Assembly: GCA_034659355.1 (NCBI GenBank)
Contig: JAYEHC010000045.1
Location: forward strand, 1 to 39,502
From: Patescibacteria group bacterium
GTDB taxonomy: Bacteria; Patescibacteriota; Minisyncoccia; JAHIHE01; JAGLIN01
DNA length: 39,502 nt
Reading direction: 5' to 3'
Under the pieces are notes generated by a model, which saw only the letters and a program-made list of their open reading frames with translations, did no database searches and was not told where the DNA came from. The first letter of the stretch is position 1. The number at the start of each line of letters is the position of its first letter. This document shows, piece by piece, positions 3,484 to 39,181 of this stretch. Position numbers and translations under genes: made by a program.

Positions 3484-3621
3484 TAGGCTCTGCTGATTTC
3501 TCCAATTGTTCCCCCTTTGTAAAACCGGGCAGGATTAATTAAAACAAGCTAAATTATTTTTTTAAGACATATTTAAGCTTATCTTTTTTTATAAAAAATA
3601 GATGAAAATCAGCAGAGTCTA
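3484..3621. repeat. family D MITE (TAGGCTCTGCTGATTT termini)
   Basis: Inverted copy of 25865-26021. Shares the CCCCCTTTGTAAAA/TTTTACAAAGGGGG hairpin. Confidence 0.88.
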
Positions 3622-3628
3622 AATATTT

Positions 3629-5648: not shown

Positions 5649-6014
5649 ATGAAAGAGGAAGTATTGTTGAATAATAATTCAGAAAGAAAAAGCCTTTTTG
5701 ACTGGTTAAAAGATTTTAAACAAGAAGTTAAAGAAATATTTGATGATGGCGAACTTACTGATGCTGTTGAAGCGAATATAAACGCAAACTTGCTTGATGA
5801 CAATATTCTAAATATGATAGCGGTAGTGATTGATGTAAAAGTTAAAAAAGGTGAAATAGAAAAGAGAAAAGCCATTGATGTTTTTGTGGCAATAAAAAAT
5901 AGGATTGATGAATATAATAGTTTGTACAGAAAAGAAGAAATAAATTACAATGAGTTGAATTTTGATTTCAGGTATTTATTAGGAAACAATGACGATTTAA
6001 ATAATAGTGTTTAG
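5649..6014 (+). CDS. hypothetical acidic protein
   Basis: 121-aa ORF between tuf and rpsJ. No motif recognised. Confidence 0.4.
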   Translation: MKEEVLLNNNSERKSLFDWLKDFKQEVKEIFDDGELTDAVEANINANLLDDNILNMIAVVIDVKVKKGEIEKRKAIDVFVAIKNRIDEYNSLYRKEEINYNELNFDFRYLLGNNDDLNNSV

Positions 6015-6393: not shown

Positions 6394-6417
6394 AAATTGC
6401 CGTTATGATATTATATT

Positions 6418-6529
6418 GTCATTCTCGTGAAGACGGGAATCCATTGCTACAATTTATTTTATTAAAAATCAAGTGATTAATGGTAAAAATAAAATTGTAA
6501 TAGTGGATTCTTGCCTTCGCAGGAATGAC
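6418..6529. repeat. family A MITE/REPIN-like doublet (about 112 bp)
   Basis: GTCATTCTCGTGAAGACGGGAATCCATTGCTACAAT ... ATTGTAATAGTGGATTCTTGCCTTCGCAGGAATGAC. Near-identical to the copy at 10638. Confidence 0.9.
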
Positions 6530-6748
6530 AAACCAGGTTATTAACAATTTTAAAAATGCTAGTTTAAGTGTTTATTACTGAGTTTCTTGAATGAAGGCGA
6601 ACAAACGTTTGTTTGCCTGCAAGAGAAAAGTTTCAGTAAAAGTGCTAATAAGCATACTGAATTAGCCAATTTATAAATCGGATAAAAACGGTTGTAATTG
6701 GTTGAATTATCTGATTTTTTATTTGTATAGAAATGAAAAATATTAATT

Positions 6749-7599: not shown

Positions 7600-7620
7600 A
7601 GTTGAAAGTGAAAAACATTT

Positions 7621-7672
7621 TGGAGTTCAGATTTTAATCTGTAAAATTTACAGGTTGAAACCTGAGTTCTGG
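7621..7672. repeat. family E hairpin repeat (TGGAGTTCAG...)
   Basis: TGGAGTTCAGATTTTAATCTGTAAA/TTTACAGGTTGAAACCTGAG, downstream of rplC. Confidence 0.7.
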
Positions 7673-7898: not shown

Positions 7899-8456
7899 AT
7901 GCTGGTAGCAATAGCGGCAGTGCCGGCGGCAGCCTATACATACAATCGGCAAGCAGCGGCAGACTACGCGCTTAACAACGCGTACAAAAATGTGCCAGGA
8001 AGCTGGCATTTTAGAGACAATGGTGGTGATTGTACCAACTTTGTATCCCATTCTCTTAAAGCAGGAGGATGGAGGGAAATCGGAGGATGGAGTCATACAA
8101 GCGATGATGTATGGTTTTATGACTACCCGTATAGATATGGGTATAGCCATACATGGACACACGCCGATAAGTTCTATCATTTTATGAGTAGAACTTCAAG
8201 AGCTAATCCTGTTTCAGTAAAAAGAAACAGTTATCTGTTGCAAGTAGGCGATGTTGTCCAGATAGACTACAAGGATAGGTATGGAAATTATGGAAGCTGG
8301 GATCATACGATGATTGTTACCGCTAAAGCGGGCAACAAATTGTTTATGTCTTATCACACGAAAGACACGGGAAATAGAGCTCTTTCAGCTATAAGACAAG
8401 AGAGCCCGAATGCTCGCTTTATTGGCTGGCATATCCATAATAACTACAACTACTAA
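7899..8456 (+). CDS. putative cell-wall amidase (Amidase_6-like domain)
   Basis: The GGDCTNFVSHSLKAGGW motif is typical of the putative amidase domain family. The gene is locally much more GC-rich than its neighbours. A signal-anchor-like sequence is encoded in frame upstream of the ATG. Confidence 0.6.
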   Translation: MLVAIAAVPAAAYTYNRQAAADYALNNAYKNVPGSWHFRDNGGDCTNFVSHSLKAGGWREIGGWSHTSDDVWFYDYPYRYGYSHTWTHADKFYHFMSRTSRANPVSVKRNSYLLQVGDVVQIDYKDRYGNYGSWDHTMIVTAKAGNKLFMSYHTKDTGNRALSAIRQESPNARFIGWHIHNNYNY

Positions 8457-8573: not shown

Positions 8574-9293
8574 ATGAACTTTAATAAAAAATATATAATT
8601 ATTTCAACGGTGGTTTCTATGTTGTTTATAATTATGTTTCATGAAATATATTTCTTATTTGAATTTCTTGTACCTTATTCTAATATAGTAAATGTAGTTT
8701 TTGCTGTAATCCTTTTGTTCATTTTAAAATATTTTTACGACAAAAAGCGTTTAAATACTTTTATAGCAATTTCCATATTGTCAATGATATTTTTCATATT
8801 TTGTTTAGATGATATTCTTCCCTCTTTCATAGAAAAAGTCACTAATAAAACACCTGAGGAAAAAGTTGAAGTTTATGTGCGAGCGGTTGCCGAAAATGAT
8901 AAAGAGAAAGCGTTGAGTCTTTGGGAAATTCCTGATTCTTACAAACTCAATTTGGAATATCGCAATAAAATAAAAGATCGCGGAAAACAGATAACTGGAA
9001 AAATGATTGAAAAGGGGATAAAATCGGATTTTACCATTACGCATATTGAATGGTGGAGTACTTGTTGTATGCCAAGCGTAACTGAAAATTCTCGTGTAGC
9101 AGGAGAAGCTAAAGTCCATGTTCAGCTTATAGATTCTAATAATATTAAATCCGTTTATATTTTTGATGTTATTGTTCCAGGAGGTTATGAAGGAGGATTG
9201 ACAGAACATTCAATTCGGCATTGGGTCATATCTGATATTTACCCCGAAAACGAAGAATCGTTGTTTTGGACGAGGAAAAACGAAAATTTTTAA
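8574..9293 (+). CDS. hypothetical membrane protein
   Basis: 239-aa ORF with three N-terminal hydrophobic helices and a soluble C-terminal domain. No motif recognised. Confidence 0.5.
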   Translation: MNFNKKYIIISTVVSMLFIIMFHEIYFLFEFLVPYSNIVNVVFAVILLFILKYFYDKKRLNTFIAISILSMIFFIFCLDDILPSFIEKVTNKTPEEKVEVYVRAVAENDKEKALSLWEIPDSYKLNLEYRNKIKDRGKQITGKMIEKGIKSDFTITHIEWWSTCCMPSVTENSRVAGEAKVHVQLIDSNNIKSVYIFDVIVPGGYEGGLTEHSIRHWVISDIYPENEESLFWTRKNENF

Positions 9294-10631: not shown

Positions 10632-10637
10632 ATTATT

Positions 10638-10748
10638 GTCATTCCCGTGAAGACGAGAATCCATTGCTACAATTTATTTTATGAAAAGTCAAGTAATGAA
10701 TGGTAAAAATAAATTGTAATAGTGGATTCCTGCCTACGCAGGAATGAC
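10638..10748. repeat. family A MITE/REPIN-like doublet
   Basis: Roughly 90 percent identical by eye to 6418-6529. Lies between rplW and rplB. Confidence 0.9.
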
Positions 10749-10811
10749 AAAGAATAGTTTTAGAGTCATTGGAAAAAATATTTTAATTTTCAAATTTAGC
10801 AATTTAATTAT

Positions 10812-11660: not shown

Positions 11661-11691
11661 ATTTTTTAAAGTTATAAAATATACTAAAATT

Positions 11692-11892
11692 GTCATTCTG
11701 AACTTGGTTTAGAATCTACTTTCTTTTATATCTGACTAAATCTACAAATCACTGAACTTTTGAATAAATTGAAAATGCAACAATTATGTTAATAAAAGGA
11801 TGATTGAGTTTGTTCTGTAAATGAAAGTCTAGTGTAAATAGGATAAGTCAAAATCTAAGATACGAAAGATTCTGAAACAAGTTCAGAATGAC
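11692..11892. repeat. family C MITE (about 200 bp, GTCATTCTGAAC...GTTCAGAATGAC)
   Basis: The termini match 24702 and 34726. The interior is homologous in inverted orientation. Lies between rplB and rpsS. Confidence 0.88.
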
Positions 11893-11921
11893 AGTTGATA
11901 GCTTAAATATAAATAACCATT

Positions 11922-12836: not shown

Positions 12837-12872
12837 GTGAATTCCTCCCGAATTTACTTTGGGGGGAATGAC
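12837..12872. repeat. 36-nt solo hairpin unit
   Basis: GTGAATTCCTCCCGAATTTACTTTGGGGGGAATGAC downstream of rplV. Confidence 0.8.
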
Positions 12873-12911
12873 AAATTGCAGTTGTGTGTAAATAAAATGT
12901 AAAATAATAAA

Positions 12912-12936
12912 GGTTCTGAAACAAGTTCAGAACGAC
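12912..12936. repeat. family C solo right end
   Basis: GGTTCTGAAACAAGTTCAGAACGAC just upstream of rpsC. Confidence 0.7.
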
Positions 12937-12963
12937 AAGAGTAAAATGTTAAAATGCAGCAAT

Positions 12964-14053: not shown

Positions 14054-14128
14054 AAATCATATAAACATTTAAACTTGTGAATATAAGATATGATTATATG
14101 TTTAAATGCTTATATGCTTAAATGATTT
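14054..14128. repeat. AT-rich intergenic palindrome sharing the CATATAAACATTTAAAC module
   Basis: The same 17-mer recurs at about 17470. Its inverted partner GATTATATGTTTAAATGC is present. Confidence 0.6.
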
Positions 14129-14131
14129 ATT

Positions 14132-14622: not shown

Positions 14623-14672
14623 AAGAGAAGCAGAGAGTTTATAAAGTTGTAAAGTTGTAAAGAATGCTCTCT

Positions 14673-15113
14673 GTCATTCCCGCGTAGGCGGGAATCCATT
14701 GATACATTAAACTACATTTAAAAAAACAAAAGCAATAATTTTTTATGAAGCAATGTTATCTTTATATTTTAGCAAGTATAAAAAATGGCACTTTATATAT
14801 AGGAGTAACAAATAATTTACTAAGAAGAGTGCTTGAGCATAAAGATGATCTTGTTGACGGATTCACAAAAAAATACAAAGTTCATAAACTTGTTTGTTAT
14901 GAAGAAATTGATGATATTAAAGTTGCTATCCAAAGAGAAAAGCAAATTAAAAAATGGGAAAGGCAATGGAAGATAAATTTGATTGAAAAGAACAATCCCG
15001 AATGGAAAGATTTATATTACGATTTGCTTGACCAAAGTTAAATTTAGCAAAAGATTAGTGAAAATAATATAGTTGAGTGGTAATAATGGATTCCTGCCTA
15101 CGCGGGAATGACA
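14673..15113. mobile_element. 441-bp element with hairpin terminal inverted repeats carrying the GIY-YIG gene
   Basis: The left end is GTCATTCCCGCGTAGGCGGGAATCCATT. The reverse complement of the right end differs at 1 of 28 nt. The termini are the same as the family A MITEs. The subterminal AAAAGATTAG is shared with the MITE at 24317. Confidence 0.75.
14745..15041 (+). CDS. GIY-YIG nuclease family protein (short UPF0213/COG2827 type)
   Basis: YLYILAS..NGTLYIGVTNNLLRRVLEHK plus a downstream REKQIKKW motif. The 98 aa cover a catalytic domain only. Confidence 0.85.
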   Translation: MKQCYLYILASIKNGTLYIGVTNNLLRRVLEHKDDLVDGFTKKYKVHKLVCYEEIDDIKVAIQREKQIKKWERQWKINLIEKNNPEWKDLYYDLLDQS

Positions 15114-17467: not shown

Positions 17468-17501
17468 ATAGCATATAAACATTTAAACATATAAACAAGT
17501 T

Positions 17502-17533
17502 GTTTAAATGTTTAAATGTTTAAATGTTTAAAT
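17502..17533 (+). repeat. octanucleotide tandem repeat (GTTTAAAT) x4
   Basis: Read directly in the rpsH-rplF spacer. Forms a palindrome with the upstream ATTTAAAC units. Confidence 0.85.
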
Positions 17534-18487: not shown

Positions 18488-18516
18488 AATAATTTTAAAT
18501 TACGAAATATCATCTT

Positions 18517-18593
18517 TGGAGTTCAGGATTTATCCTGTAAAACCGCAGAAAATAGAAATGCCTATTTTCTTACAGGTTAAAACCTGAACTCCA
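18517..18593. repeat. family E hairpin repeat (77 bp)
   Basis: TGGAGTTCAGGATTTATCCTGTAA...TTACAGGTTAAAACCTGAACTCCA, between rplR and rpsE. Confidence 0.8.
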
Positions 18594-19757: not shown

Positions 19758-20093
19758 ATGAAAGAAGTTCAATCAATAAATGAGAACCCTGCTGAGTTGT
19801 TTGTAGGAATAGATAATCTAAGAAAGTGTCATTTTAAAAATGAAGATCAAGAAAGAGCGGTTTTTTTGAACGCAATTAAAGAAAATACAGAAGTTGGTAG
19901 TCTTGTAGAAGATAGTTTTTTAATAGCTCCGCAAAATAATCCGGAGGAAGGTGCGTATTTTCTGCAGTATGGTCAAGAAAACGACGTTACATATAGTGTT
20001 GAAGAGATAGAAACATTGGCTGATTTTGGAAGCGCTAAAGGATTGTTTGAGAAATACAGAAAGGAAGTAGACGAAATATTAGAAAGAGAATAG
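19758..20093 (+). CDS. hypothetical acidic protein
   Basis: 111-aa ORF between rplO and secY. No motif recognised. Confidence 0.4.
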   Translation: MKEVQSINENPAELFVGIDNLRKCHFKNEDQERAVFLNAIKENTEVGSLVEDSFLIAPQNNPEEGAYFLQYGQENDVTYSVEEIETLADFGSAKGLFEKYRKEVDEILERE

Positions 20094-20170: not shown

Positions 20171-21442
20171 ATGCTTAAAAAATTAATCCGTGTCTTTAAA
20201 GACAAGGAATTAAGAAATAAAATAATCTTTGTGGCGGCGTTGCTGGTTGTTTTTAGAATTGCGGCGCATATTCCGGTTCCGATCGTTGATTCCGAAAGAC
20301 TGAAAGATTTTTTTCAAGGCAATCAACTGCTGGGAATGTTAAGTATGTTCACGGGAGGAGGAATGGAAAAGTTTTCCATAGTTTTGCTGGGAATCGGTCC
20401 GTATATTACCGCTTCAATTATAATGCAATTGCTGACAATGATTTTTCCGAAAATCAAAGAAATGTATCAAGAGTCGGGAGAACAAGGCAGGCAGAAGTTT
20501 AATCAATATACGAGAATTGCCACAGTTCCGCTTGCCGTGTTGCAAAGTTTTGGAATGATCACTTTGCTTAAAAGTCAGGGGATTATTGTCACTGCCGATA
20601 AATTTGATTTGGCGGTTGCCATTTCCATAATCACGGCTGGAACGATATTTTTAATGTGGTTGGGAGAGCTTATGTCTGAAAAGAAAATAGGCAATGGAAT
20701 TTCGCTGATTATTTTCGCTGGAATTGTTGCCGGTTTACCGACGACGATACAACAAACTCTTTCAACGATGACCTCGGATAAAATTCCTTCTATTATTGGT
20801 TTGCTGATTATGTCTTTAGTCGTGGTTGTCGCGGTGGTTGTTATCACGGAAGCGCAGAGAAATATACCTGTTTCTTACGCAAGGCGGGTCAGAGGCGGCA
20901 AAACGACTGGTGGTGTTTCAACATTCTTACCTTTAAGAGTGAATTCTGCGGGAATGATACCGCTTATTTTTGCGATGTCTATTATGCTTTTTCCGGGAAT
21001 TGTGGCTTCGTTTCTTGTACAAAATCCAAACGAAACTATTGCCGGCGTCGCGACATTTATAAATAATCTTTTTCAAGACCAGTTATTTTATGGTATTTTG
21101 TATTTTATAACAGTGTTTTTGTTCACTTATTTTTATACCTCAATAGTGTTTGACCCGAAGAATGTCGCGGAAAACTTGCAGAAGCACGGTGGGTTTGTGC
21201 CCGGTATCAGACCGGGAACAAACACAGCTGAATTTCTGGGGAGGGTTTTAAACAGAATAACTTTTCTTGGCGCTACTTTTCTTGGCTTGATTGCTGTTCT
21301 TCCTTTTATCGGGCAAGCGATGACCAATGTAACCACAATGGCAATCGGCGGCGCGGCTGTTTTGATTGTTGTCGGAGTTGTTCTTGATGTCATCAGACAG
21401 ATTGATTCGCAATTGACAATGAGGGATTATGATGATATGTAA
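20171..21442 (+). CDS. secY: preprotein translocase subunit SecY
   Basis: 423 aa, polytopic, in the conserved position. Contains the LGIGPYITASII motif. Confidence 0.97.
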   Translation: MLKKLIRVFKDKELRNKIIFVAALLVVFRIAAHIPVPIVDSERLKDFFQGNQLLGMLSMFTGGGMEKFSIVLLGIGPYITASIIMQLLTMIFPKIKEMYQESGEQGRQKFNQYTRIATVPLAVLQSFGMITLLKSQGIIVTADKFDLAVAISIITAGTIFLMWLGELMSEKKIGNGISLIIFAGIVAGLPTTIQQTLSTMTSDKIPSIIGLLIMSLVVVVAVVVITEAQRNIPVSYARRVRGGKTTGGVSTFLPLRVNSAGMIPLIFAMSIMLFPGIVASFLVQNPNETIAGVATFINNLFQDQLFYGILYFITVFLFTYFYTSIVFDPKNVAENLQKHGGFVPGIRPGTNTAEFLGRVLNRITFLGATFLGLIAVLPFIGQAMTNVTTMAIGGAAVLIVVGVVLDVIRQIDSQLTMRDYDDM

Positions 21443-21479
21443 AAATTCTCCCTTTGGAAAAGGGGGTTAGGGGGATTTT

Positions 21480-21537
21480 TGGAGTTCAGGTTTTAACCTG
21501 TAAGATTCTATCAACAGCCTGAATTTATTTCAGGTTT
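21480..21537. repeat. family E hairpin repeat, degenerate
   Basis: TGGAGTTCAGGTTTTAACCTGTAAG... downstream of secY. Confidence 0.65.
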
Positions 21538-21559
21538 TGTTTTAAAAAGATGTCCTTTT

Positions 21560-21727
21560 GTCATTCCCGCGGAGGCGGGAATCCATATGAAGTTTCATCA
21601 ATCGTTATTTTTGAATAAACTTATTGCAAACAAATCAGCGATAGTATTAAGCGATATTTCAACCATTATAGCGATATTTTAAAAACTGAAGATATTGCGT
21701 CTGGATTCCTGCCTCTGCAGGAATGAC
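21560..21727. repeat. family A MITE-like unit (168 bp) at the left end of the larger element
   Basis: A left hairpin end plus a diverged right hairpin end. Confidence 0.7.
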
Positions 21728-21766
21728 AGAATAGAATAAACACATAAGTCCTAAATATAAAAAATT

Positions 21767-22699
21767 ATGCTGTATAAAATAAATAAAGAAAATCTAAACG
21801 CTATTAAAGAAAAAAGTATTTTAGAAAAAGACATTGAGAAACTTGTTGGGAGAAATCTTGATTGTCTGATGGGATTAAAATTTGTTTATTTTCAATTTCC
21901 AGTTGATAATAAATATATTGATATTCTTGCGTTTGATGAAGAAGTAAATGCTCCAGTTTTGATTGAACTTAAAAAAGAAAATGATAAAGGGCTTTTTGAT
22001 CAGGGAATGGAATATTTTAATCTTTTATCAACTAGAAAAGAATGCTTTCTTATTAAGCTCTGCGAGGTTTTAATAAAAATACCCGCAAAGCTTTCAGCTG
22101 TTGACTGGTCATCTTCGCGGGTTATTTTTATTGGCAAGAATTTTACAGAAAGACAAAGGAGAGCAGTTGATTTTCGCGGATTGCCTATTGAACTTTGGGA
22201 TTACGATTGGTACGAGGGTGATTATTTTAAATTAGAACAAATTGGCTTAGAAAAAAGAGCTAGTTTGGATATAAAAGAAATTAAGGGAAATTCTATTTCA
22301 AAAATTGAAAAAGAATTTAAAGAGCACACAGAAGATGAATATAAAAACAAAACGAGTGAAAAAGCTTGGGAAATTTTTAAAAATATTAAAGAAGAGCTTT
22401 TAAAGTGGAACAGAGTTAGAATGAATATGACAAACAATTATATTAGTTTTACTTATAGAAATTGTGCACTTTCTTATATTTATTTTAAAAAAGATAAATT
22501 AAAAATTCGTTTTGGAAAAGAAGAATACAAGTTAAACATAGCTGACAATTTGAAAGTAAAAAATGTTAGAATTAAAAATGAGCGTCCTAAATTCTCCGCG
22601 CATTATGAAATTACAGTGGAAGATTCTAATAATTTATTGGAGTTTATTTTTATTGTTAAGCAGATATATAAAAAGATTGACGAAGAATATTTAAAATAG
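21767..22699 (+). CDS. PD-(D/E)xK (NucS/DUF91-like) nuclease-fold protein with uncharacterised C-terminal domain
   Basis: N-terminal pattern YIDILAFDEE-x7-LIELKK fits a D...E-x-K restriction-endonuclease-like core. The rest is unassigned. Confidence 0.5.
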   Translation: MLYKINKENLNAIKEKSILEKDIEKLVGRNLDCLMGLKFVYFQFPVDNKYIDILAFDEEVNAPVLIELKKENDKGLFDQGMEYFNLLSTRKECFLIKLCEVLIKIPAKLSAVDWSSSRVIFIGKNFTERQRRAVDFRGLPIELWDYDWYEGDYFKLEQIGLEKRASLDIKEIKGNSISKIEKEFKEHTEDEYKNKTSEKAWEIFKNIKEELLKWNRVRMNMTNNYISFTYRNCALSYIYFKKDKLKIRFGKEEYKLNIADNLKVKNVRIKNERPKFSAHYEITVEDSNNLLEFIFIVKQIYKKIDEEYLK

Positions 22700-22817
22700 T
22701 CATAACAAGATTTTTTATTTTTTCTAAAACAATTATTTTTTAAATAGAGTTTTACCTGATTTAATGGATTCCCGCCTCCGCGGGAATGACAACGATATTA
22801 CTTTTTCATAAACAAAA

Positions 22818-23393
22818 ATGAAATCCAAAAACAAACTATTCATAATCTCCGGACCGTCGGGGGCGGGAGAAGATAGCATTATTGAGGGACTGAAAAAGTT
22901 TCTTCCGATTGAGAGAGTGATAACGACAACGACGAGAAAAAAGCGTTCGGATGTTTTTTTGGAAGATCCTTATTATTTTATTTCCCAAGAAGAGTTTGAA
23001 AAAGGAATTACTGAGAATAGATTTCTTGAATACGCGCAGGAATATAATAATCAGTTTTATGGCGTTACTGAAAAAGAAATCCGGAGAGTTATTAAAAGCG
23101 GTAGAATAGGAATTTGGAAAATTGAATATAAGGGTGTGATAACGATGAAAAAATTAATGCCGGAAGTTGTCGCAATTTTTATTACCGTTTCCTCATTGAA
23201 AATTTTAAAGCAAAGGTTATTGCAACGCGGCGCGAGCGAGGAGTTTATCAAGGAGAGAATGGAATATACGAGAGAGTGGTTGAAGCATAAAGATATTTAC
23301 GATTATGAGGTTATAAATCACGAAGGAAAATTGGATGAGGCGATAGATAAGGTTAGAGGGATTATTTTAAAAGAAACGAACGAAAATTTATAG
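22818..23393 (+). CDS. gmk: guanylate kinase-like protein with non-canonical P-loop
   Basis: Guanylate kinase layout: ISGPSGAGEDSI, TTTTR, FLEYA..YNNQFYGV. The Walker A Lys-Ser is replaced by Glu-Asp. Confidence 0.75.
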   Translation: MKSKNKLFIISGPSGAGEDSIIEGLKKFLPIERVITTTTRKKRSDVFLEDPYYFISQEEFEKGITENRFLEYAQEYNNQFYGVTEKEIRRVIKSGRIGIWKIEYKGVITMKKLMPEVVAIFITVSSLKILKQRLLQRGASEEFIKERMEYTREWLKHKDIYDYEVINHEGKLDEAIDKVRGIILKETNENL

Positions 23394-23440
23394 AAACGCA
23401 TAGAAATTTATTGTTATGATACTTCGTGTATTTATACACT

Positions 23441-23609
23441 GTCATTCCCGCGGAGGCAGAAATCCATTATTACAATAAACTCAAACTATTTTCACAAATC
23501 TTAATCTTGAAATTAACTTCAACTAACCCGTGCGTGGATCCCAGATATTTTTTATATTGTAGGAAACAGGCAATGCCTGTTCTCTACAATAGAAAAAATT
23601 CTGGGATGA
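23441..23609. repeat. family A-related MITE with a nested palindrome in its right hairpin
   Basis: Left end GTCATTCCCGCGGAGGCAGAAATCCATT. The right end GGATCCCAGA[...]TTCTGGGATGAC is split by the ATTGTAGGAAACAGGCAATGCCTGTTCTCTACAAT palindrome. Confidence 0.75.
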
Positions 23610-23643
23610 CAAATTAAAAAATAAAAAAATAAAAAAATAAAAA

Positions 23644-24300
23644 ATGAAAAATATCAATATAATAATTATGGGACCGCAAGGTTCCGGGAAAGGGACGCAG
23701 GCGAGGATGTTGACGGAGAAATTTAATTTGCAGATTTTTGAAACGGGGAATATTTTGAGAAATTTAGCTAAGCAAGACACGGAAATTGGCAGAAAGATAA
23801 ACGAAATTATAAATATCAAAGGAGACATTGTTCCTTGGGATTTTATGAAAAAAGAAATACTGGGGCAGAAATTAGACGAGCTTGATAAAAATAAAGGAAT
23901 AATATTTGACGGTACTCCGCGGATAATGGAAGAAGCAGAATTTTGGGATGAAAAATTAAAAGAAACCGGAAGAAAAATTGATTATGCTTTTTATGTTGAT
24001 ATTTCAAAAGAGGAATCAATCAAGCGAATTTCCAGCAGAAAATTATGCAGAGAAAATGGACATCCCTTAATTGTCGGAAAAGATATTACTGAAGAAGATG
24101 AAAAGTGTCCGATTTGCGGAAGTGAAGTTTATAGAAGAGAAGATGATGTTCCGGAAAAAGTTTTAAATCGTTTGGAATGGAGCGAGAAATTATTAAGTCC
24201 CGTCATTGAATATTATGAAAATAAAAATATGTTAGTAAAAATAAATGGCGAACAAAGCGTAGAAGAAGTTTTTGGGGAGATTATGGGTTATGTGAAATAG
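23644..24300 (+). CDS. adk: adenylate kinase (zinc-lid type)
   Basis: IIIMGPQGSGKGTQA P-loop and a lid with C..NGH...CPICG. Confidence 0.95.
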   Translation: MKNINIIIMGPQGSGKGTQARMLTEKFNLQIFETGNILRNLAKQDTEIGRKINEIINIKGDIVPWDFMKKEILGQKLDELDKNKGIIFDGTPRIMEEAEFWDEKLKETGRKIDYAFYVDISKEESIKRISSRKLCRENGHPLIVGKDITEEDEKCPICGSEVYRREDDVPEKVLNRLEWSEKLLSPVIEYYENKNMLVKINGEQSVEEVFGEIMGYVK

Positions 24301-24316
24301 AATGCATAGACATATT

Positions 24317-24428
24317 GTCATTCCCGCGTAGGCGGGAATCCAATAAGTCAGAAAAATGTTATTCAAAAGATTAGCTTGTATAGAAATAGTAAATCGTAGT
24401 AGTGGATTCCCGCCTCCGCAGGAATGAC
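24317..24428. repeat. family A MITE/REPIN-like doublet (112 bp)
   Basis: The left end is identical to the left end of the GIY-YIG element over GTCATTCCCGCGTAGGCGGGAATCCA. The right end is GTGGATTCCCGCCTCCGCAGGAATGAC. Confidence 0.9.
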
Positions 24429-24606
24429 AGTAAAAAATATATGAATCCTCCGCGGGAACTGATTTGTAACCAGTTTCCAATATTTCTCAAGCAAATAAAA
24501 CTTGTAAGTCTTAAAAACAAAGGAAACGGGTTACAAACCCGTTCCCGCATTGCAAAGAAGAAACAAATGGTTCAAGTCAGAGACATTGAACCAACGATAG
24601 GAGTTT

Positions 24607-24691
24607 AGCTTGTTTTAACTAATCCTGCCCGGAAATCCCCCTAGCCCCCTTTTACAAAGGGGGAACAATTGGAGAAAATCAGCAGAGCTTA
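24607..24691. repeat. family D MITE, right half only
   Basis: AGCTTGTTTTAACTAATCCTGCCCGG...AAAATCAGCAGAGCTTA aligns with 25935-26021. Confidence 0.8.
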
Positions 24692-24701
24692 AATAAAATT
24701 T

Positions 24702-24950
24702 GTCATTCTGATCCGCCAGCTGGCGGATTCAGAATCTTCGTTATATTAGGTTTTAACTTATACTATTTTCATCATACTTTCGTCTACGACGCAAACACAA
24801 TTATCTTTCTATAATAATACAATTATTGCATTTTCAGCTTATTCAAAGGTTTAGTGATTTATAGGTTCGGTTAAATGTAAAAGAGAGTAGATTCTGAAAC
24901 AAGTTCAGAATGACAGGTTAGTTCAGAATAACAGGTTAGTTCAGAATGAC
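24702..24950. repeat. family C MITE with an altered left hairpin and a tandemly triplicated right end
   Basis: The left hairpin is GTCATTCTGATCCGCCAGCTGGCGGATTCAGAATC. The right end is GTTCAGAATGACAGGTTA in 2.7 copies (24903-24950). Confidence 0.85.
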
Positions 24951-25823: not shown

Positions 25824-25864
25824 AAGTTAAAGTCTGAACTTCAGTGGATTTGAAGATTGCTATT

Positions 25865-26021
25865 TAGGCTCTGCTGATTTTCATCTATTTTTTATAAAAA
25901 GAGATAAACTTAAATATGCCTTAAAAAAATAATTCAGCTTGTTTTAACTAATCCTATCCGGAACTCCTCCCTAACTCCCTTTTACAAAGGGGGAACAATT
26001 AGAGAAAATCAGCAGAGCCTA
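25865..26021. repeat. family D MITE (157 bp)
   Basis: TAGGCTCTGCTGATTTTCATC...GAGAAAATCAGCAGAGCCTA, between map and the LCP gene. Confidence 0.88.
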
Positions 26022-26082
26022 TTTACACAACGCCTAAAAAATGTAAAAATAGAGTGTGAGAAATTAAACCAGTTTATAATCT

Positions 26083-32750: not shown

Positions 32751-32797
32751 ACAGGAACAGTTGGAGAAAATTAGGAGTTCCTAAATAATTAAAAAAA

Positions 32798-34705: not shown

Positions 34706-34725
34706 ATTGTAATTTGTCATTCTGA

Positions 34726-35052
34726 ACTTGTTTCAGAATCTTCGTTATTTTAGGTTTTGACTTATATTATTTACATCATGCTTTTGCCTACGACACAAAT
34801 ACAATTATCTTTCTGTTTAACACAATCACTGCATTCCCAGTTTATTCAAATACCCAGTGATTTGTAGGTTTAATTAAGTATAGTGGTAATACCTTAAAAT
34901 TACTTTTTTTATTTCAATGTCTGATGCAGGATTTATCATTTATTGTAGCAGTGGATTCCTCCCGAAAGTTCTCGGGAGGAATGACAAATAGCTATTTTTA
35001 AAATAATACCACTATATAAAAAAAGTAGATTCCAAACCAAGTTCAGAATGAC
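34726..35052. repeat. family C MITE with a nested 35-nt hairpin unit
   Basis: The left 130 bp aligns with 24730-24860. The nested unit GTGGATTCCTCCCGAAAGTTCTCGGGAGGAATGAC lies at 34951-34985. Confidence 0.85.
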
Positions 35053-35075
35053 ATTAGATTTTTAACAATAAAAAT

Positions 35076-35486: not shown

Positions 35487-36119
35487 ATGTTGTCATTATC
35501 TAAACAGAAAATTCAACCTTTAGCGGTCGCGGATGTTCTGCAGGAAAAGGGGATAGCGGTTTTTACTCCGCAGGAATTTAGCCGCTTCTTTAATACTTCT
35601 CCGCGACAGACACGCTATTTTTTAGAGGCGTACACCAAACGGTCATTTTTAGTGCGTCTGAAAAAGAATTTATACGCGCTCAAAACAAAATTGCCGAGCG
35701 AGGAGATCATTGCTAACGCGCTTTATAAACCGTCATACTTGTCGCTGGAATATGTTTTGTCGCGCCATGGCATTATTCCGGAATCAACATATAGCATTAC
35801 CTCAATTACCACAAGAGCCACGGCTGATTTTTCTGTGTTAGGAAAAGAGTTTTTATATAGAAAAATAAAAAAGGCGGCCTACATTGGATATGTGCCGGAA
35901 AAAATTGACGGAAAAACAATTTTTATCGCCGAACCGGAAAAAGCTCTGACTGATTATTTATATTTTGTATCTCTGGGGCGAAAAACTTTGAACAATCGCA
36001 TTGATGTTCGCCGGCTTAATAAAAAAAAGGCGCTGGTATATGCTAAACTATACCAGCGGAAAAATTTAAAAGAGCTTATTGAGCAGGTATGGGCGATGGC
36101 GCCGACCGTAATTAAATAA
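35487..36119 (+). CDS. abiEi: AbiEi-family antitoxin/transcriptional regulator (type IV TA)
   Basis: 210-aa protein immediately upstream of an AbiEii gene, at a 12-nt gap. The size and the N-terminal wHTH-like segment fit AbiEi. Confidence 0.7.
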   Translation: MLSLSKQKIQPLAVADVLQEKGIAVFTPQEFSRFFNTSPRQTRYFLEAYTKRSFLVRLKKNLYALKTKLPSEEIIANALYKPSYLSLEYVLSRHGIIPESTYSITSITTRATADFSVLGKEFLYRKIKKAAYIGYVPEKIDGKTIFIAEPEKALTDYLYFVSLGRKTLNNRIDVRRLNKKKALVYAKLYQRKNLKELIEQVWAMAPTVIK

Positions 36120-36131
36120 TTTTTTTACTGT

Positions 36132-36854
36132 ATGCTTACCAATGAAACAATTATAAAATTAGCCGCAAAAATGCAGACTTCGGAACAAAATGTTCGGCGT
36201 GAATATTTTCAACATTTATTTTTGTCTTTGTTCTACAAGCAAGACGGAGCGGACAAAGTGTTTTTCAAAGGCGGTACCGCCTTGCGCCTTATTTATAACA
36301 GCCCGCGCTTTTCCGAAGATCTGGATTTTAATTCGCCTTTAGCCGATGTCCATAGCATTGAAAATGCTATCGTTAACACCCTTGTTGAAGTACAAAAGGG
36401 CGGGGTAGAAACGGAACTTGACGAGGCAAAAAAAACAAGCGGCGGTTATCTTTCAACGATGCGATTTATTGGTATGGGTCGCGCCGTTCCTATCCGGATA
36501 GAAATATCATTCCGCGATCGCAAGAAAAAAGGCGAGGCGGTTTTTATCGCCAGCGATATGTTTCCGGATTATACAATTGTACAGTTAGTCAGCGAGCAGC
36601 TTATACAGGGTAAGGTTGACGCTTTGCTTGACCGCAAGAAACCGCGCGATTTTTACGACTTTTATTTTCTGATGCGCCGCAACCTGCTTCCGGAAAAAGA
36701 TAAAGGCGATGTCTTACGGCAAGTTTTTGAAGCCTTGAAGAAAACTGATATTAATTTTGACAGTGAGTTAAAAGAATTTCTTCCTAAAAGCCATCACATG
36801 ATCGTGAAAGATTTTAAGACAACTTTAAAAAGAGAGATAGAGAGGTTTATATAA
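36132..36854 (+). CDS. abiEii: AbiEii/AbiGii-family nucleotidyltransferase toxin (DUF1814)
   Basis: Hallmark FFKGGTALRLIYNSPRFSEDLDF motif, plus the downstream KPRDFYD motif. Confidence 0.85.
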   Translation: MLTNETIIKLAAKMQTSEQNVRREYFQHLFLSLFYKQDGADKVFFKGGTALRLIYNSPRFSEDLDFNSPLADVHSIENAIVNTLVEVQKGGVETELDEAKKTSGGYLSTMRFIGMGRAVPIRIEISFRDRKKKGEAVFIASDMFPDYTIVQLVSEQLIQGKVDALLDRKKPRDFYDFYFLMRRNLLPEKDKGDVLRQVFEALKKTDINFDSELKEFLPKSHHMIVKDFKTTLKREIERFI

Positions 36855-36901
36855 TGGAAGCGTGCAAATTTACATACTTGCGCTAAGAATATCAAAAAAA
36901 T

Positions 36902-38308
36902 ATGCCAAAATTAAAAGACATTCCAAAAGTAGACAGACCAAGGGAAAGGTTTTTGAAAAAAGGTTCAGATGCGCTTTCTAAAAGCGAGCTTTTGGCTGTT
37001 CTTATCAGCAGCGGCATCAGGGGTAAAAATGTCAAAAAAATTTCTGAGCAGATCATCAGAAAATTTGGTGATAAATTTTTGGATTTGACTGTTGAGGATT
37101 TGCTTGGAGTTTCCGGAATAGGGGAGGCAAAGGCGCTTCAAATTGTTTCAGCTATCGCTCTGACGAAAAGATTTTATGATGAAAAAAATCCGAAAGAAAA
37201 TCTCGTCTTATCAGCGAAAGACGCTATTTTTTTAAATTCCGATTTAAAAGAAAAGAAAAAAGAATATTTGGTCTGCTTGTATCTAAACGCCAGGAATGTT
37301 TTATTGAAAAAAGAAATTGTTTCAATCGGAACTCTTGACAAAGGGATAGTCCACCCGAGAGAAATTTTCGCGCCAGCTTTAGAATTGAGATCGGCTGGCA
37401 TCATTCTGGTGCATAATCACCCATCAGGCGATCCGTCTCCGAGCGAACAAGATAGGGAAGTTTTTGACAGAATTATTGAAGCGGGCAAGATAATAGGAGT
37501 CAATGTCATTGATTTTATTATTATCGCCGGCAATGAGAATTACAGTTTTTTGGGAAGTTTGCAGGGAGAAGATAAAAACGATCTTTATATTTCAAATGGC
37601 ATCCAGCCCTCGCTTTTTGATCTTTTGATGGACAAGAAAGCGGAATATGAACCTGAGCAGCAAAAAACAAAAAATATAAGGATTATAGATTTATTCGCAG
37701 GAATCGGCGGGATAAAAATCGGCTTTGAAAACGCCGGATTTGAATGTGTTTTTTCTAATGATTTTGACAAGAACTGCAAAGTTACATACGATTTTAATTT
37801 TGCGAGAAAGCAGAAATCGCTGATCTGCGCCGACATTGCCGAGGTTTCGTTAGATTTAATTCCGGACTTTGAAGTGCTCACAGGAGGATTCCCGTGCCAG
37901 CCGTTTTCAATAGCGGGATACCGCAAAGGATTTTCAGACGAGGGCAGGGGAGACTTATTTTTTGAAATTATAAGAATATTAAAAGACAAAAAGCCGGCAG
38001 CTTTTCTGCTTGAAAATGTAAAAAATCTTAAAACTCACGACAATGGAAAAACACTGCGGATTATTTATAAAGAGCTTCAAAAATTAGGATACCATATCGG
38101 TAGCAAGGTGCTTAACACTATGGAGCATGGAAACATCCCCCAGAACAGAGAGCGCATTTACATTGTCGGATTTTTAGACCAAGAAGCGTTTAATAGTTTT
38201 TCATTTCCGGAAAAAATCAAGCTGACAAAAACTATTCATGACTGCCTGGAGCCGGATGCCGATGAAAAATATTATTATAAACGGCAAGCCTCTTTATGGA
38301 AAATTTAA
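36902..38308 (+). CDS. RadC-like JAB/MPN domain fused to the N-terminal half (motifs I-VIII) of a C5-cytosine DNA methyltransferase
   Basis: RadC part: PRERFLKKG, HhH GIGEAKA, and JAMM HNHPSGDPSPSEQD. MTase part: DLFAGIGG (I), GGFPCQPFS (IV), LLENVKNL (VI), QNRERIYIVGF (VIII). The ORF ends at an in-frame TAA. Confidence 0.8.
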   Translation: MPKLKDIPKVDRPRERFLKKGSDALSKSELLAVLISSGIRGKNVKKISEQIIRKFGDKFLDLTVEDLLGVSGIGEAKALQIVSAIALTKRFYDEKNPKENLVLSAKDAIFLNSDLKEKKKEYLVCLYLNARNVLLKKEIVSIGTLDKGIVHPREIFAPALELRSAGIILVHNHPSGDPSPSEQDREVFDRIIEAGKIIGVNVIDFIIIAGNENYSFLGSLQGEDKNDLYISNGIQPSLFDLLMDKKAEYEPEQQKTKNIRIIDLFAGIGGIKIGFENAGFECVFSNDFDKNCKVTYDFNFARKQKSLICADIAEVSLDLIPDFEVLTGGFPCQPFSIAGYRKGFSDEGRGDLFFEIIRILKDKKPAAFLLENVKNLKTHDNGKTLRIIYKELQKLGYHIGSKVLNTMEHGNIPQNRERIYIVGFLDQEAFNSFSFPEKIKLTKTIHDCLEPDADEKYYYKRQASLWKI

Positions 38309-38407
38309 AAAAGAAATCACTAAAAAAATACGGTTTACCAATGGAGAAGAAAATATGTAAGAGAAAATAAGAATGGTGTTTGCCTTACTTTAACAGCAAC
38401 TTATTAA
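38309..38407 (+). pseudogene. remnant of the m5C methyltransferase variable-region entry segment, same frame, cut by TAA codons
   Basis: The ORF frame continues as KRNH*KNTVYQWRRKYVRENKNGVCLTLTATY*. The QWRR...TLTA block is typical of Dcm-type enzymes. Motifs IX and X are absent downstream. Confidence 0.7.
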
Positions 38408-38413
38408 ATTACT

Positions 38414-39181
38414 ATGGAAGGAAATAAGCATAAAAATTATGAAATATTAAACTTGATAGGCTATGGTCTCTCAAAATTTAATGATGATTTTATAAGAGAA
38501 TTTGGATTTTCAACAAAAACAGCTTTTTATAATTTTTGTGTTGAAAATAAAATTGCAGAAACAGTCGGCACTGTAAAAAATAGAATGGATTTATTCGATC
38601 ATTTTTTTCCAGAAAACGGAAGGAAGGGTTGGTGGCAAAAAGGAGATGCCTATATTCATAGAAAGATATTGATTGATAGTTTATTTGGTGATGAAAATGC
38701 AAAGAGCTATGCAAATATAGTGAAATTACATATGAAAGAAGAATTTCATGTGAAAAGCATTGAATATCAAGCAAAACCAATTATTAAAACTAGATTTAAA
38801 AAACTACAAGAAACAGGATTAGAAGCAGAATTATTTTTTATGAATAATTACAACTCAATAGATATTTTTCAAAATGGATTACTGGAAGATGCCAGATTGT
38901 ATGGAGATGGGTACGATTTTCAAATAAGTGTAAATGAACAATCTTATCTAGCAGAAATAAAAGGAATAAGAGCAAAAAAAGGAAAATTTAGACTTACTGA
39001 AAATGAATATCAAAAAGCATTAGAATATAAAAATGACTATATTATAACTTTAATTTTAAATCTAAATGAAATTCCTAGAATTCTTACAATTGAAGATCCT
39101 ATTAAAAATCTAAAATTTGAAGAGAGATTTATAAAATCCAAAACTACAAAAGAATATCATTTAACCAAAGCAATATGTTAA
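38414..39181 (+). CDS. DUF3883-like PD-(D/E)xK restriction-endonuclease-fold protein
   Basis: The C-terminal GDGYDFQI...YLAEIKGIR...FRLTENEYQKA pattern fits D...E-x-K with the DUF3883 layout. Very AT-rich compared with the upstream genes. Confidence 0.55.
   Translation: MEGNKHKNYEILNLIGYGLSKFNDDFIREFGFSTKTAFYNFCVENKIAETVGTVKNRMDLFDHFFPENGRKGWWQKGDAYIHRKILIDSLFGDENAKSYANIVKLHMKEEFHVKSIEYQAKPIIKTRFKKLQETGLEAELFFMNNYNSIDIFQNGLLEDARLYGDGYDFQISVNEQSYLAEIKGIRAKKGKFRLTENEYQKALEYKNDYIITLILNLNEIPRILTIEDPIKNLKFEERFIKSKTTKEYHLTKAIC

Follow-up and report, generated by a model that had tools for sequence, protein, structure and literature searches.

Can a gene that is lodged between two housekeeping genes and enclosed by a pair of inverted hairpins be a mobile unit, and if so, what would move it? 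The question is raised by a 39,502-nt stretch of Patescibacteria DNA (contig JAYEHC010000045.1 of assembly GCA_034659355.1; "the window" hereafter, with coordinates counted from its first letter), in which an intact open reading frame (ORF) of 310 amino acids (aa), ORF310, lies between secY (20171-21442) and gmk (22818-23393). The sequence GTCATTCCCGCGGAGGCGGGAATCCAT occurs at 21560-21586 on the plus strand and at 22764-22790 on the minus strand with 0 mismatches, forming a perfect 27-nt inverted pair around the gene. An initial annotation of the sequence had reported these 27/27 identical termini and had taken the 1.23-kb span that they delimit as a cargo-bearing unit. The termini are as described, and the window holds seven copies of the 27-mer with at most three mismatches, for a dinucleotide-shuffle expectation of 0.00. 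The answer that we favor, at a probability of about 0.6, is that ORF310 belongs to a passenger gene cassette bounded by SRM hairpins, that these hairpins are sites of the nuclease SsnA, and that the copy in the window is a composite of this cassette with a miniature inverted-repeat transposable element (MITE). The features of the locus are listed below, with L numbers designating the contigs used for comparison.

21516-21545, plus strand: terminator-like hairpin with T-run (intrinsic type), 3' of secY, outside the element and kept in relatives
21559-21586, plus strand: outer left SRM/NTS-type hairpin, TGTCATTCCCGCGGAGGCGGGAATCCAT, left end of the 170-bp MITE, same as the left end of L144
21559-21728, plus strand: SRM-bounded MITE of 170 bp, aligning end to end with two copies in L143
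21701-21728, minus strand: inner SRM hairpin with a T-A compensated stem and an AGAG loop, right end of the MITE
21729-21766, plus strand: cassette leader in shortened form, aataaacacata...taaata, with homology to those of the other copies
21767-22699, plus strand: 310-aa cargo ORF, PDC-S18 homologue, with a predicted NucS-like PD-(D/E)xK domain N-terminally and DUF5655 C-terminally
22700-22763, plus strand: cassette trailer of 64 nt, conserved in comparison with seven other copies
22764-22791, minus strand: right SRM/NTS-type hairpin, right end of the cassette, 3/28 mismatches to the NTS consensus

The motif cctgaatttatttcRgg is also found 3' of secY in L004, L014, L015 and L018.

Identity of the terminal hairpins

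Both ends are predicted to fold as single-stranded DNA (ssDNA) into a hairpin with an 8-bp stem and a 4-nt loop (dG -8.9 to -9.2 kcal/mol, z -3.4 to -4.4). At 21559-21586 and 22764-22791, they differ at 3 of 28 positions from CGTCATTCCCGCGMAVGCGGGAATCYRG, the published consensus by which the Neisseria NTS is defined (Chenal et al., 2025, Nat Commun, PMC11893778), degenerate forms being termed SRMs. Their palindromic core, ATTCCC-N8-GGGAAT, equals the 20-bp Neisseria dRS3 consensus. An anchored search for GTCATT...AATC recovered the expected hairpin core in 31 of 32 hits (the remaining one, in L001, is spurious). The GTC upstream of the palindrome and the C right after it, which SsnA needs, are conserved in the hairpins here, although in the anchored search these flanks are fixed by the anchor itself. 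Stem pair 9-18 of the Patescibacteria copies is C-G in 14 cases, T-A in 13 and unpaired in four, and the compensatory exchange of C-G and T-A suggests that hairpin pairing is under selection. Searching Rfam with the hairpins gave sub-threshold chance hits only (FtrB, WsnRNA46, miRNAs). Judged by these sequence features, the hairpins are already-described NTS/SRM repeats and no new terminus family.

SsnA, a 94-aa GIY-YIG protein, binds the NTS hairpin as ssDNA only and cleaves in an orientation-specific manner, ~3 nt upstream of the NTS; in Neisseria, NTS-containing DNA transforms less when SsnA is present (PMC11893778). Among the ssnA homologues of the same survey, 42% were flanked by SRMs on both sides, and the NTS-ssnA-NTS arrangement was likened to an insertion sequence (IS), an IS-like origin being raised only as a hypothesis (PMC11893778). 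The window has such an arrangement of its own, beside other hairpins of the same kind, which we call type A:

14672-15113, plus strand: SRM-ssnA-SRM unit, a 442-bp pair with the GIY-YIG gene 14745-15041 between left and right hairpins
23440-23467, plus strand: solo SRM hairpin in the gmk/adk gap, matching the consensus
24316-24429, plus strand: SRM-bounded MITE of 114 bp in the adk/map gap, an inverted hairpin pair

The GIY-YIG gene at 14745-15041, some 7 kb upstream of the cassette, encodes 98 aa (Pfam GIY-YIG, 4e-17) and has hairpins at 14672 and 15113. Its product shares 52% identity with the SsnA orthologue of N. gonorrhoeae (E 1e-26), with the GIY, YIG and REKQ motifs aligned, and is presumed to act in trans on every type-A hairpin of the window. 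Since the termini are assigned to the NTS/SRM repeats, the GIY-YIG gene would be their cognate partner and the PD-(D/E)xK gene between secY and gmk a passenger. An earlier suggestion that two different nuclease folds are associated with one repeat family thus holds as far as the link goes, with the two nucleases in unequal roles.

Twelve type-A ends are present in the 39.5-kb window, each with at most five mismatches to the NTS consensus. Three inverted pairs of 112-114 bp are MITEs (6417-6530, 10637-10749 and 24316-24429), two pairs enclose more (170 bp at 21559-21728, 442 bp at 14672-15113), and the copies at 22764 and 23440 are solo. Beyond this genome, a scan of IMG/VR with GTCATTCCYGCNNNNGCRGGAATCC matched >120 contigs of 32-72% GC, and among the matches listed, the homologues of the window's GIY-YIG protein (L023, L061, L114; ~50% identity) all lie between a left and a right hairpin. 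The hairpin-GIY-YIG-hairpin layout recurs in L014, L023, L061, L114 and Aeromonas, on contigs of 33-68% GC. The homologues in Aeromonas and Azospirillum have the identical hairpin type on both sides, those in S. meliloti and Planktothrix adjoin variant hairpins, that of Photobacterium has a hairpin downstream only, and that of N. gonorrhoeae is located in a dRS3 array. The idea of an undescribed GIY-YIG-driven repeat association was dropped, as the association is already published as the Ssn system (PMC11893778).

The cassette in relatives

Close homologues of ORF310 (77-88% aa identity) were traced to their contigs, which gave ~9 cassette copies, and pattern scans of genomes and metagenomes for further ORF copies yielded 1 and 3 loci. 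In its canonical form, the cassette is ~1.1 kb long and consists of a left hairpin, a leader of 46-100 nt, a gene of 307-310 aa, a 64-nt trailer and an inverted right hairpin. Among related Paceibacteria, it is found at four unrelated operon-internal loci: between secY and gmk (L004, L014 and L015, each with left hairpin, leader, ORF, 64-nt trailer and right hairpin), between an ABC ATPase and its permease (L007), between a SEC-C-motif protein and a NYN gene (L016), and between hydB-like and hydA genes (L017). The closest cassette relative, L144, is a 1094-bp contig with the left 27-mer at its start and the right 27-mer at its end, both equal to the outer hairpins of the window.

In alignments, homology between copies at different loci ends at the outer hairpin edges, and homology to the L007 copy ends directly after ...AATGACA of the right hairpin. 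The trailer and right hairpin (22700-22790) are 74-89% identical to seven other copies, unrelated loci included, which is a stronger conservation than at synonymous ORF sites. Two of the ~9 copies are pseudogene cassettes with intact ends (an in-frame stop in L014, a split gene in L017). L143, which is related to L007, has only 55 nt separating the ATPase from the permease gene, vs. a 1.2-kb insertion in L007, where the comparison with L143 places the resumption of native sequence directly 3' of the right hairpin. These alignments argue for a discrete ~1.1-kb unit that has been moved between loci and genomes as cargo, so that the proposal of a hairpin-bounded unit around the ORF is borne out, as is the expectation of further ORF copies with the same termini (e.g., L144 with both 27-mers).

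Synonymous divergence (dS) points the same way. Between the window and L004, dS is 0.60 for the ORF vs. 1.2-1.45 for secY, gmk and adk, and between the window and L001 it is 0.81 for the ORF vs. 1.9-2.1 for secY and adk (gmk not computable), values above 1 being saturated. An ORF dS far below that of its flanks indicates that the cassette is younger than the split of its hosts and was moved horizontally.

Five genomes have the order secY-ORF-gmk. Across the secY-adk region the picture is mixed: L004, L014 and L015 carry the cassette, the ORF of L001 is without hairpins, and L018, with a secY 93% identical to that of the window, has an unrelated 277-aa gene in the secY-gmk slot. This 277-aa ORF (3184-4017 in L018/L020) has no Pfam or PADLOC match. 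The gmk beside it is unusually diverged (83% identity vs. 89-93% for secY, adk and map), which suggests a recombination tract around the slot.

Structure of the copy in the window

On its left side, the window copy departs from the canonical layout. The inner right-type end at 21701-21728, TGTCATTCCTGCAGAGGCAGGAATCCAG on the minus strand, differs from the 27-mer at 4 of 27 positions, the number of mismatches reported before. The segment that it closes, 21559-21728, is 72-74% identical to two independent MITE copies in L143 (GCA_018896765.1) and has the same internal sequence. Between the inner hairpin and the ATG, 38 nt correspond by homology to the distal part of the leader in other cassettes, and the inner hairpin occupies the position of their left hairpin, but inverted (the junction of MITE and cassette reads GGAATGACAGAATAGAATAAACAC). 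By this alignment, the window cassette is missing the left hairpin of its own, together with ~12 nt, and it abuts a separate 170-bp MITE, the outer end of which completes a perfect inverted pair by chance.

As the master form of the family, the 27-mer is common, recurring exactly or over its first 24-26 nt in L014 (three times), L143 and L144 (twice), so that 27/27 identity alone is weak evidence for the pairing of these two copies; as proof of pairing it was rejected. The 1.23-kb span, proposed as the unit in the initial annotation, is by this comparison not the canonical unit, and the annotation's own reservation that the outer ends might stem from separate MITEs proved apt for the left end.

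With the hairpins so widespread, there might be no unit at all: the ORF would be a resident of the secY-gmk slot, inherited vertically, and the hairpins independent SRM or MITE insertions as in every intergenic gap of the operon. The separate MITE on the left, the master form of the 27-mer, the order common to five genomes and the hairpin-free ORF in the slot of L001 all agree with this. So does the bracketing of housekeeping genes by left and right hairpins, seen for adk (window 23441-24428; L018) and rplR (L014), which means that flanking by such hairpins alone is no evidence for a unit; in the window, adk is bracketed by chance, between the solo hairpin at 23440 and the MITE at 24316-24429. 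Independent insertion, however, does not account for the ORF, leader, trailer and both hairpins recurring together, delimited by the hairpin tips, at three further loci unrelated to this one, for a contig (L144) that runs exactly from hairpin to hairpin, for a trailer conserved across loci, or for an ORF dS well below that of the flanks. In L018, moreover, whose secY is the closest among relatives with an occupied slot, the gene in the slot is a different one. Vertical inheritance with secondary loss of the hairpins in L001 is likewise weakened by the low ORF dS. We therefore regard the absence of any unit as improbable and already largely contradicted, and retain the SRM-bounded passenger cassette.

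The cargo gene

ORF310 contains IDILAFD...LIELKK, which had been read as a NucS/DUF91-like motif. In a Pfam scan at E up to 0.1, the C-terminal half matched DUF5655 (3e-5) and the N-terminal half SduA_C below threshold, and there was no match to a NucS family. When ORF310 was tested as a Shedu protein, SduA_C/DUF4263 reached 15.8 bits vs. a cut-off of 27, and the PADLOC Shedu models gave no hit. The nuclease domain is N-terminal in the AlphaFold model (pLDDT 82.5), for which the best Foldseek matches in the PDB are the NucS/EndoMS structures 2vld and 5gke (probability 1.0, E 1.3e-3); further matches include other PD-(D/E)xK nucleases, and YjbR/DUF1801-like folds on the C-terminal domain. Of the catalytic residues, E67-x-K69 and Q79xxxY83 do not vary among 24 homologues, and at least 90% of these keep D52. 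Motif and modeled fold thus predict a NucS-like PD-(D/E)xK nuclease as the N-terminal domain. The nuclease call of the initial annotation is upheld in this respect, though by the profile searches ORF310 is a member of neither NucS nor Shedu. PDB searches by sequence (single sequence and profile) returned nothing meaningful, and NCBIfam and PHROGs no match.

The PADLOC profile PDC-S18 (PDLC04945) matches over its full length (E 7.3e-61, residues 2-301 vs. profile positions 3-301 of 302). PADLOC's PDCs are candidates defined by their embedding in BREX, DISARM or type I restriction-modification (RM) systems; ORF310, between secY and gmk, is neither in nor next to any of these. A search of the literature on PDC-S18 and DUF5655 found almost nothing. 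The family comprises 858 clusters at 50% identity, mostly of ~300 aa and with full-length matches. Homologues on Acinetobacter plasmids (29-30% identity, 97% coverage) lie within hsdM-hsdS-X-hsdR operons with no SRM nearby, and a homologue in L012 (54% identity) is also without hairpins, which indicates that the family is independent of the hairpins. Among close copies, the ratio of non-synonymous to synonymous substitutions of the ORF is 0.1-0.2. From the profile match, ORF310 is a candidate anti-phage gene of the PDC-S18 family, and it is probably cargo rather than a mobility enzyme.

A different role would follow if the locus were a selfish element driven by its nuclease, as the initial annotation had considered, with the PD-(D/E)xK protein recognizing or cutting the hairpins or an empty target and spreading like a homing endonuclease. 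In its favor, the nuclease fold shows no disruption and evolves under purifying selection, the gene is always accompanied by the hairpins within this clade, and branched or mismatched DNA is a substrate of NucS-type enzymes. For the hairpins, however, the cognate nuclease has been demonstrated, and it is SsnA, which has another fold and is encoded in the window. Moreover, the family occurs without SRMs in L012 and in the Acinetobacter type I RM operons, pseudogene copies (two of ~9) keep intact ends, and the gene is absent from MITEs that have these ends. Self-propagation by ORF310 is thus very improbable, and a passenger role for the gene within the cassette remains our preferred reading.

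Movement of the cassette

The boundaries of the cassette coincide with the SRM tips, which is the region where SsnA reportedly cuts (~3 nt upstream of the NTS). The only enzyme associated with the ends is SsnA, a hydrolytic ssDNA nuclease with no known strand transfer. Target-site duplications were found neither at nine complete left-to-right spans nor in the filled/empty pair L007/L143, and no transposase or recombinase gene was found in the 39.5-kb window or at the cassette-bearing loci. No integrase ORF was recognized in the window when its ORF list was inspected by eye and some ORFs were scanned against Pfam.

We propose a route through ssDNA. The cassette would travel in single-stranded form, through uptake or replication, and SsnA would trim it by cutting each strand once, ~3 nt beyond the GTCAT tip. 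Resident SRMs or MITEs would then take up the cut pieces by recombination, either short-homology or one-sided homology-facilitated, leaving no target-site duplication. Such a model fits the missing target-site duplications, the hairpin of a second type (type B, see below) with its spacer in L007, L015 and L017, the B-type remnants in L143, and the small insertions in hairpin loops of L015 and L143. The latter are ~23-26 nt long, lie exactly in the SRM hairpin loop (L015 ~1191-1250, L143 ~2900-2951; one has a mini-hairpin) and, being seen in two genomes, hint at the loop as a hotspot of breakage or insertion.

Within a cassette, the left and right hairpins are identical (L004, L014, L017 and L144), both having C-G or both T-A at stem pair 9-18. 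This pair differs between cassettes, and the ends of MITEs are usually unmatched. Gene conversion in a fold-back intermediate may have matched the two ends, as one idea.

Several points weigh against the passenger cassette served by SsnA. GIY-YIG enzymes hydrolyze DNA without strand transfer, and any role of SsnA in promoting mobility is putative. The comparison draws on metagenome contigs throughout, its dS values are saturated above 1, and the exact 1.23-kb composite did not turn up a second time. The ORF of L001 stands in the secY-gmk slot, after a NUDIX gene, with no hairpins, an arrangement that had from the outset been taken to speak against a hairpin-bounded element. The same B-type hairpin and a ~50-nt spacer precede the cassette in L007, L015 and L017, so the moving unit may exceed the type-A pair. 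The empty site of L143 holds degenerate B-type hairpin remnants only and is not clean; a clean empty site between ATPase and permease was accordingly rejected, L141 having a radical SAM gene there. Finally, Neisseria SsnA lowers the integration of NTS-containing DNA (PMC11893778).

Alternatively, the cassette could move by true transposition or site-specific recombination through an unseen enzyme, for example of the IS110/Piv type, with SsnA uninvolved. The ends are inverted repeats starting TGT...ACA, target-site duplications are absent as in IS110 or Y1 elements, dRS3 is a known integration site of the IS110/Piv-type recombinase of a Neisseria filamentous phage, and hairpins that are identical within units and different between them hint at end-copying. 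Against this stand the lack of a transposase or recombinase gene in the 39.5-kb window and at the cassette-bearing loci, and the sole Y1 gene found, similar to the tyrosine transposases (RAYTs) of repetitive extragenic palindromic (REP) elements (L007 1735-2316), is flanked by another repeat, CTACCCGGCTTyAGCCGAGGG. The strong cross-phylum link, moreover, is that of the hairpin with a GIY-YIG gene. An unseen enzyme of this kind is in our view unlikely, and SsnA remains the favored partner of the SRM-bounded cassette. A driver of the RAYT/REPIN type (REPINs being REP doublets) was also considered and rejected, the Y1_Tnp gene between pheS and pheT in L007 having a different flanking repeat; the window holds no HUH Y1 (RAYT) gene.

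The earlier study did not settle what makes the repeats multiply, nor whether mobility lies behind the IS-like SRM-ssnA-SRM arrangement (PMC11893778). The present locus and its relatives offer natural evidence that an SRM pair delimits a ~1.1-kb cassette relocating between operons and diverged genomes, and such a cassette renders the mobility question directly testable. It would also be a possible route by which candidate defence genes spread in small, streamlined Patescibacteria genomes. More tentatively, and as a possibility that we would put below even odds, SRMs and SsnA could constitute an unrecognized class of mobile element, with a GIY-YIG ssDNA nuclease as driver, autonomous SRM-ssnA-SRM units, MITEs, and cargo derivatives that shuttle defence-type genes between Patescibacteria loci and lineages, even into core operons such as the ribosomal-protein/secY operon.

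Other repeats and genes in the window

Two further hairpin types were found:

11690-11893, 12894-12938, 24728-24915 and 34711-35053: type B hairpins, TGTCATTCTGAACTTGKTTYAGAATC
2070-2108, 12837-12875 and 34951-34989: type C hairpins, GGATTCCTCCCGAA...

Types B and C share the TGTCATTC...GAATGACA tips with type A and differ in their inner stems; in the element at 34711-35053, a type-C end is nested within a type-B pair. The SsnA homologue of Planktothrix has type-B-like flanks, which suggests that types B and C may be SRM variants with an Ssn specificity of their own.

At 1051-1182, the window has a different inverted repeat pair, CTACCCGGCTTTAGCCGAGGGTT..., which resembles a REPIN doublet. In L007, the CTACCCGGCTTTAGCCGAGGGTT repeat (1660-1720 and 2320-2370) flanks a 193-aa Y1_Tnp gene (RAYT-like, with an HYH motif) between pheS and pheT, and this implies that a classical REP/RAYT system coexists with SRM/Ssn in these genomes. 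Repeats unrelated to the SRMs lie at 3525-3625, 24604-24696, 25861-26026 and 32754-32788, and at 7618-7648, 18514-18544 and 21445-21510. One such family is ~100 nt long with a CCCTTTTACAAAGGGGG hairpin, and of another, TTTTGGAGTTCAGRTTTTAAYCTGTAA, one copy directly follows the stop codon of secY and precedes both terminator and MITE. Tandem arrays with an 8-nt unit (TGTTTAAA / TGCTTAAA / TGCTTATA) are located at 14083-14131 and 17493-17533, just upstream of rpmC and rplF.

The S10/spc cluster is interrupted by additional genes: a 121-aa ORF between tuf and rpsJ (5649-6014), an Amidase_6 protein and a 239-aa membrane-like ORF in the rplC-rplD gap (7899-8456 and 8574-9293), and a 111-aa ORF between rplO and secY (19758-20093). 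PADLOC gave no match for the extra ORFs within this cluster. Gene insertion inside operons seems common in this lineage, the radical SAM gene of L141 likewise lying between ATPase and permease. A defence-like cluster occupies 35487-39181. Its AbiEii nucleotidyltransferase toxin (36132-36854) has a likely AbiEi partner at 35487-36119; at 36902-38308, a RadC-JAB domain and a C5 DNA methyltransferase are fused, and the NOV_C/PD-(D/E)xK-like protein at 38414-39181 shows a weak match to the C-terminus of TmtA.

Comparison with known systems

For the cargo gene, the closest structural counterparts are NucS/EndoMS, the top Foldseek hits, with which ORF310 shares the PD-(D/E)xK fold and the D...ExK...QxxxY residues; unlike these, it is without the NucS N-terminal DNA-binding domain and has the nuclease domain N-terminally, followed by DUF5655. 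The PDC-S18/DUF5655 proteins of type I RM operons have the same two-domain architecture and a length of ~300 aa, with a match to the hidden Markov model over its full length, whereas here the gene is found in a hairpin-bounded cassette in a ribosomal-protein/secY operon, with no defence island.

For the mobile unit, classical MITEs and ISs offer terminal inverted repeats, multiple loci and constant boundaries as likenesses, and target-site duplication as a difference, none being seen here. Integron gene cassettes differ in that their attC sites are direct, whereas the hairpins here are inverted, and no integrase was recognized. REP/REPIN-RAYT systems and MITEs likewise consist of short hairpins in inverted pairs with non-autonomous derivatives (112-170 bp here), and in the REP/REPIN-RAYT systems, too, the gene of the cognate nuclease is present once and enclosed by the repeats; the cognate enzyme here, however, is a hydrolytic GIY-YIG protein, not an HUH Y1 transposase, and again target-site duplications were not seen.

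The Neisseria intergenic mosaic elements (NIMEs) and dRS3 arrays (Bentley et al., 2007, PMC1797815) come closer. There too, hairpins with the 20-bp dRS3 consensus bracket variable segments in nested mosaics, and neighboring genes show raised divergence or exchange. NIMEs were stated as not seen outside Neisseria (PMC1797815), and the present repeats would extend NIME-like mosaics well beyond that genus. The segment here differs in being a complete gene cassette with a conserved leader and trailer.

The closest system is NTS/SRM-SsnA itself. Common to both are the hairpin core ATTCCC-N8-GGGAAT with GTC upstream and C downstream, the multicopy and intergenic occurrence, an SsnA homologue within inverted hairpins, and NTS-gene-NTS arrangements around genes other than ssn. 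The host differs, as Patescibacteria (Paceibacteria) are not mentioned in PMC11893778, and that study shows restriction of transformation, not mobility. In the sequences compared here, a non-ssn gene forms one SRM-bounded unit at several unrelated loci, next to SRM-bounded MITEs. The hairpin family, its GIY-YIG partner and the defence-candidate family of the ORF were thus already known; new are the Patescibacteria host, the SRM-bounded MITEs, and, from the comparison of relatives, evidence for a mobile passenger cassette with an SRM pair as its limits.

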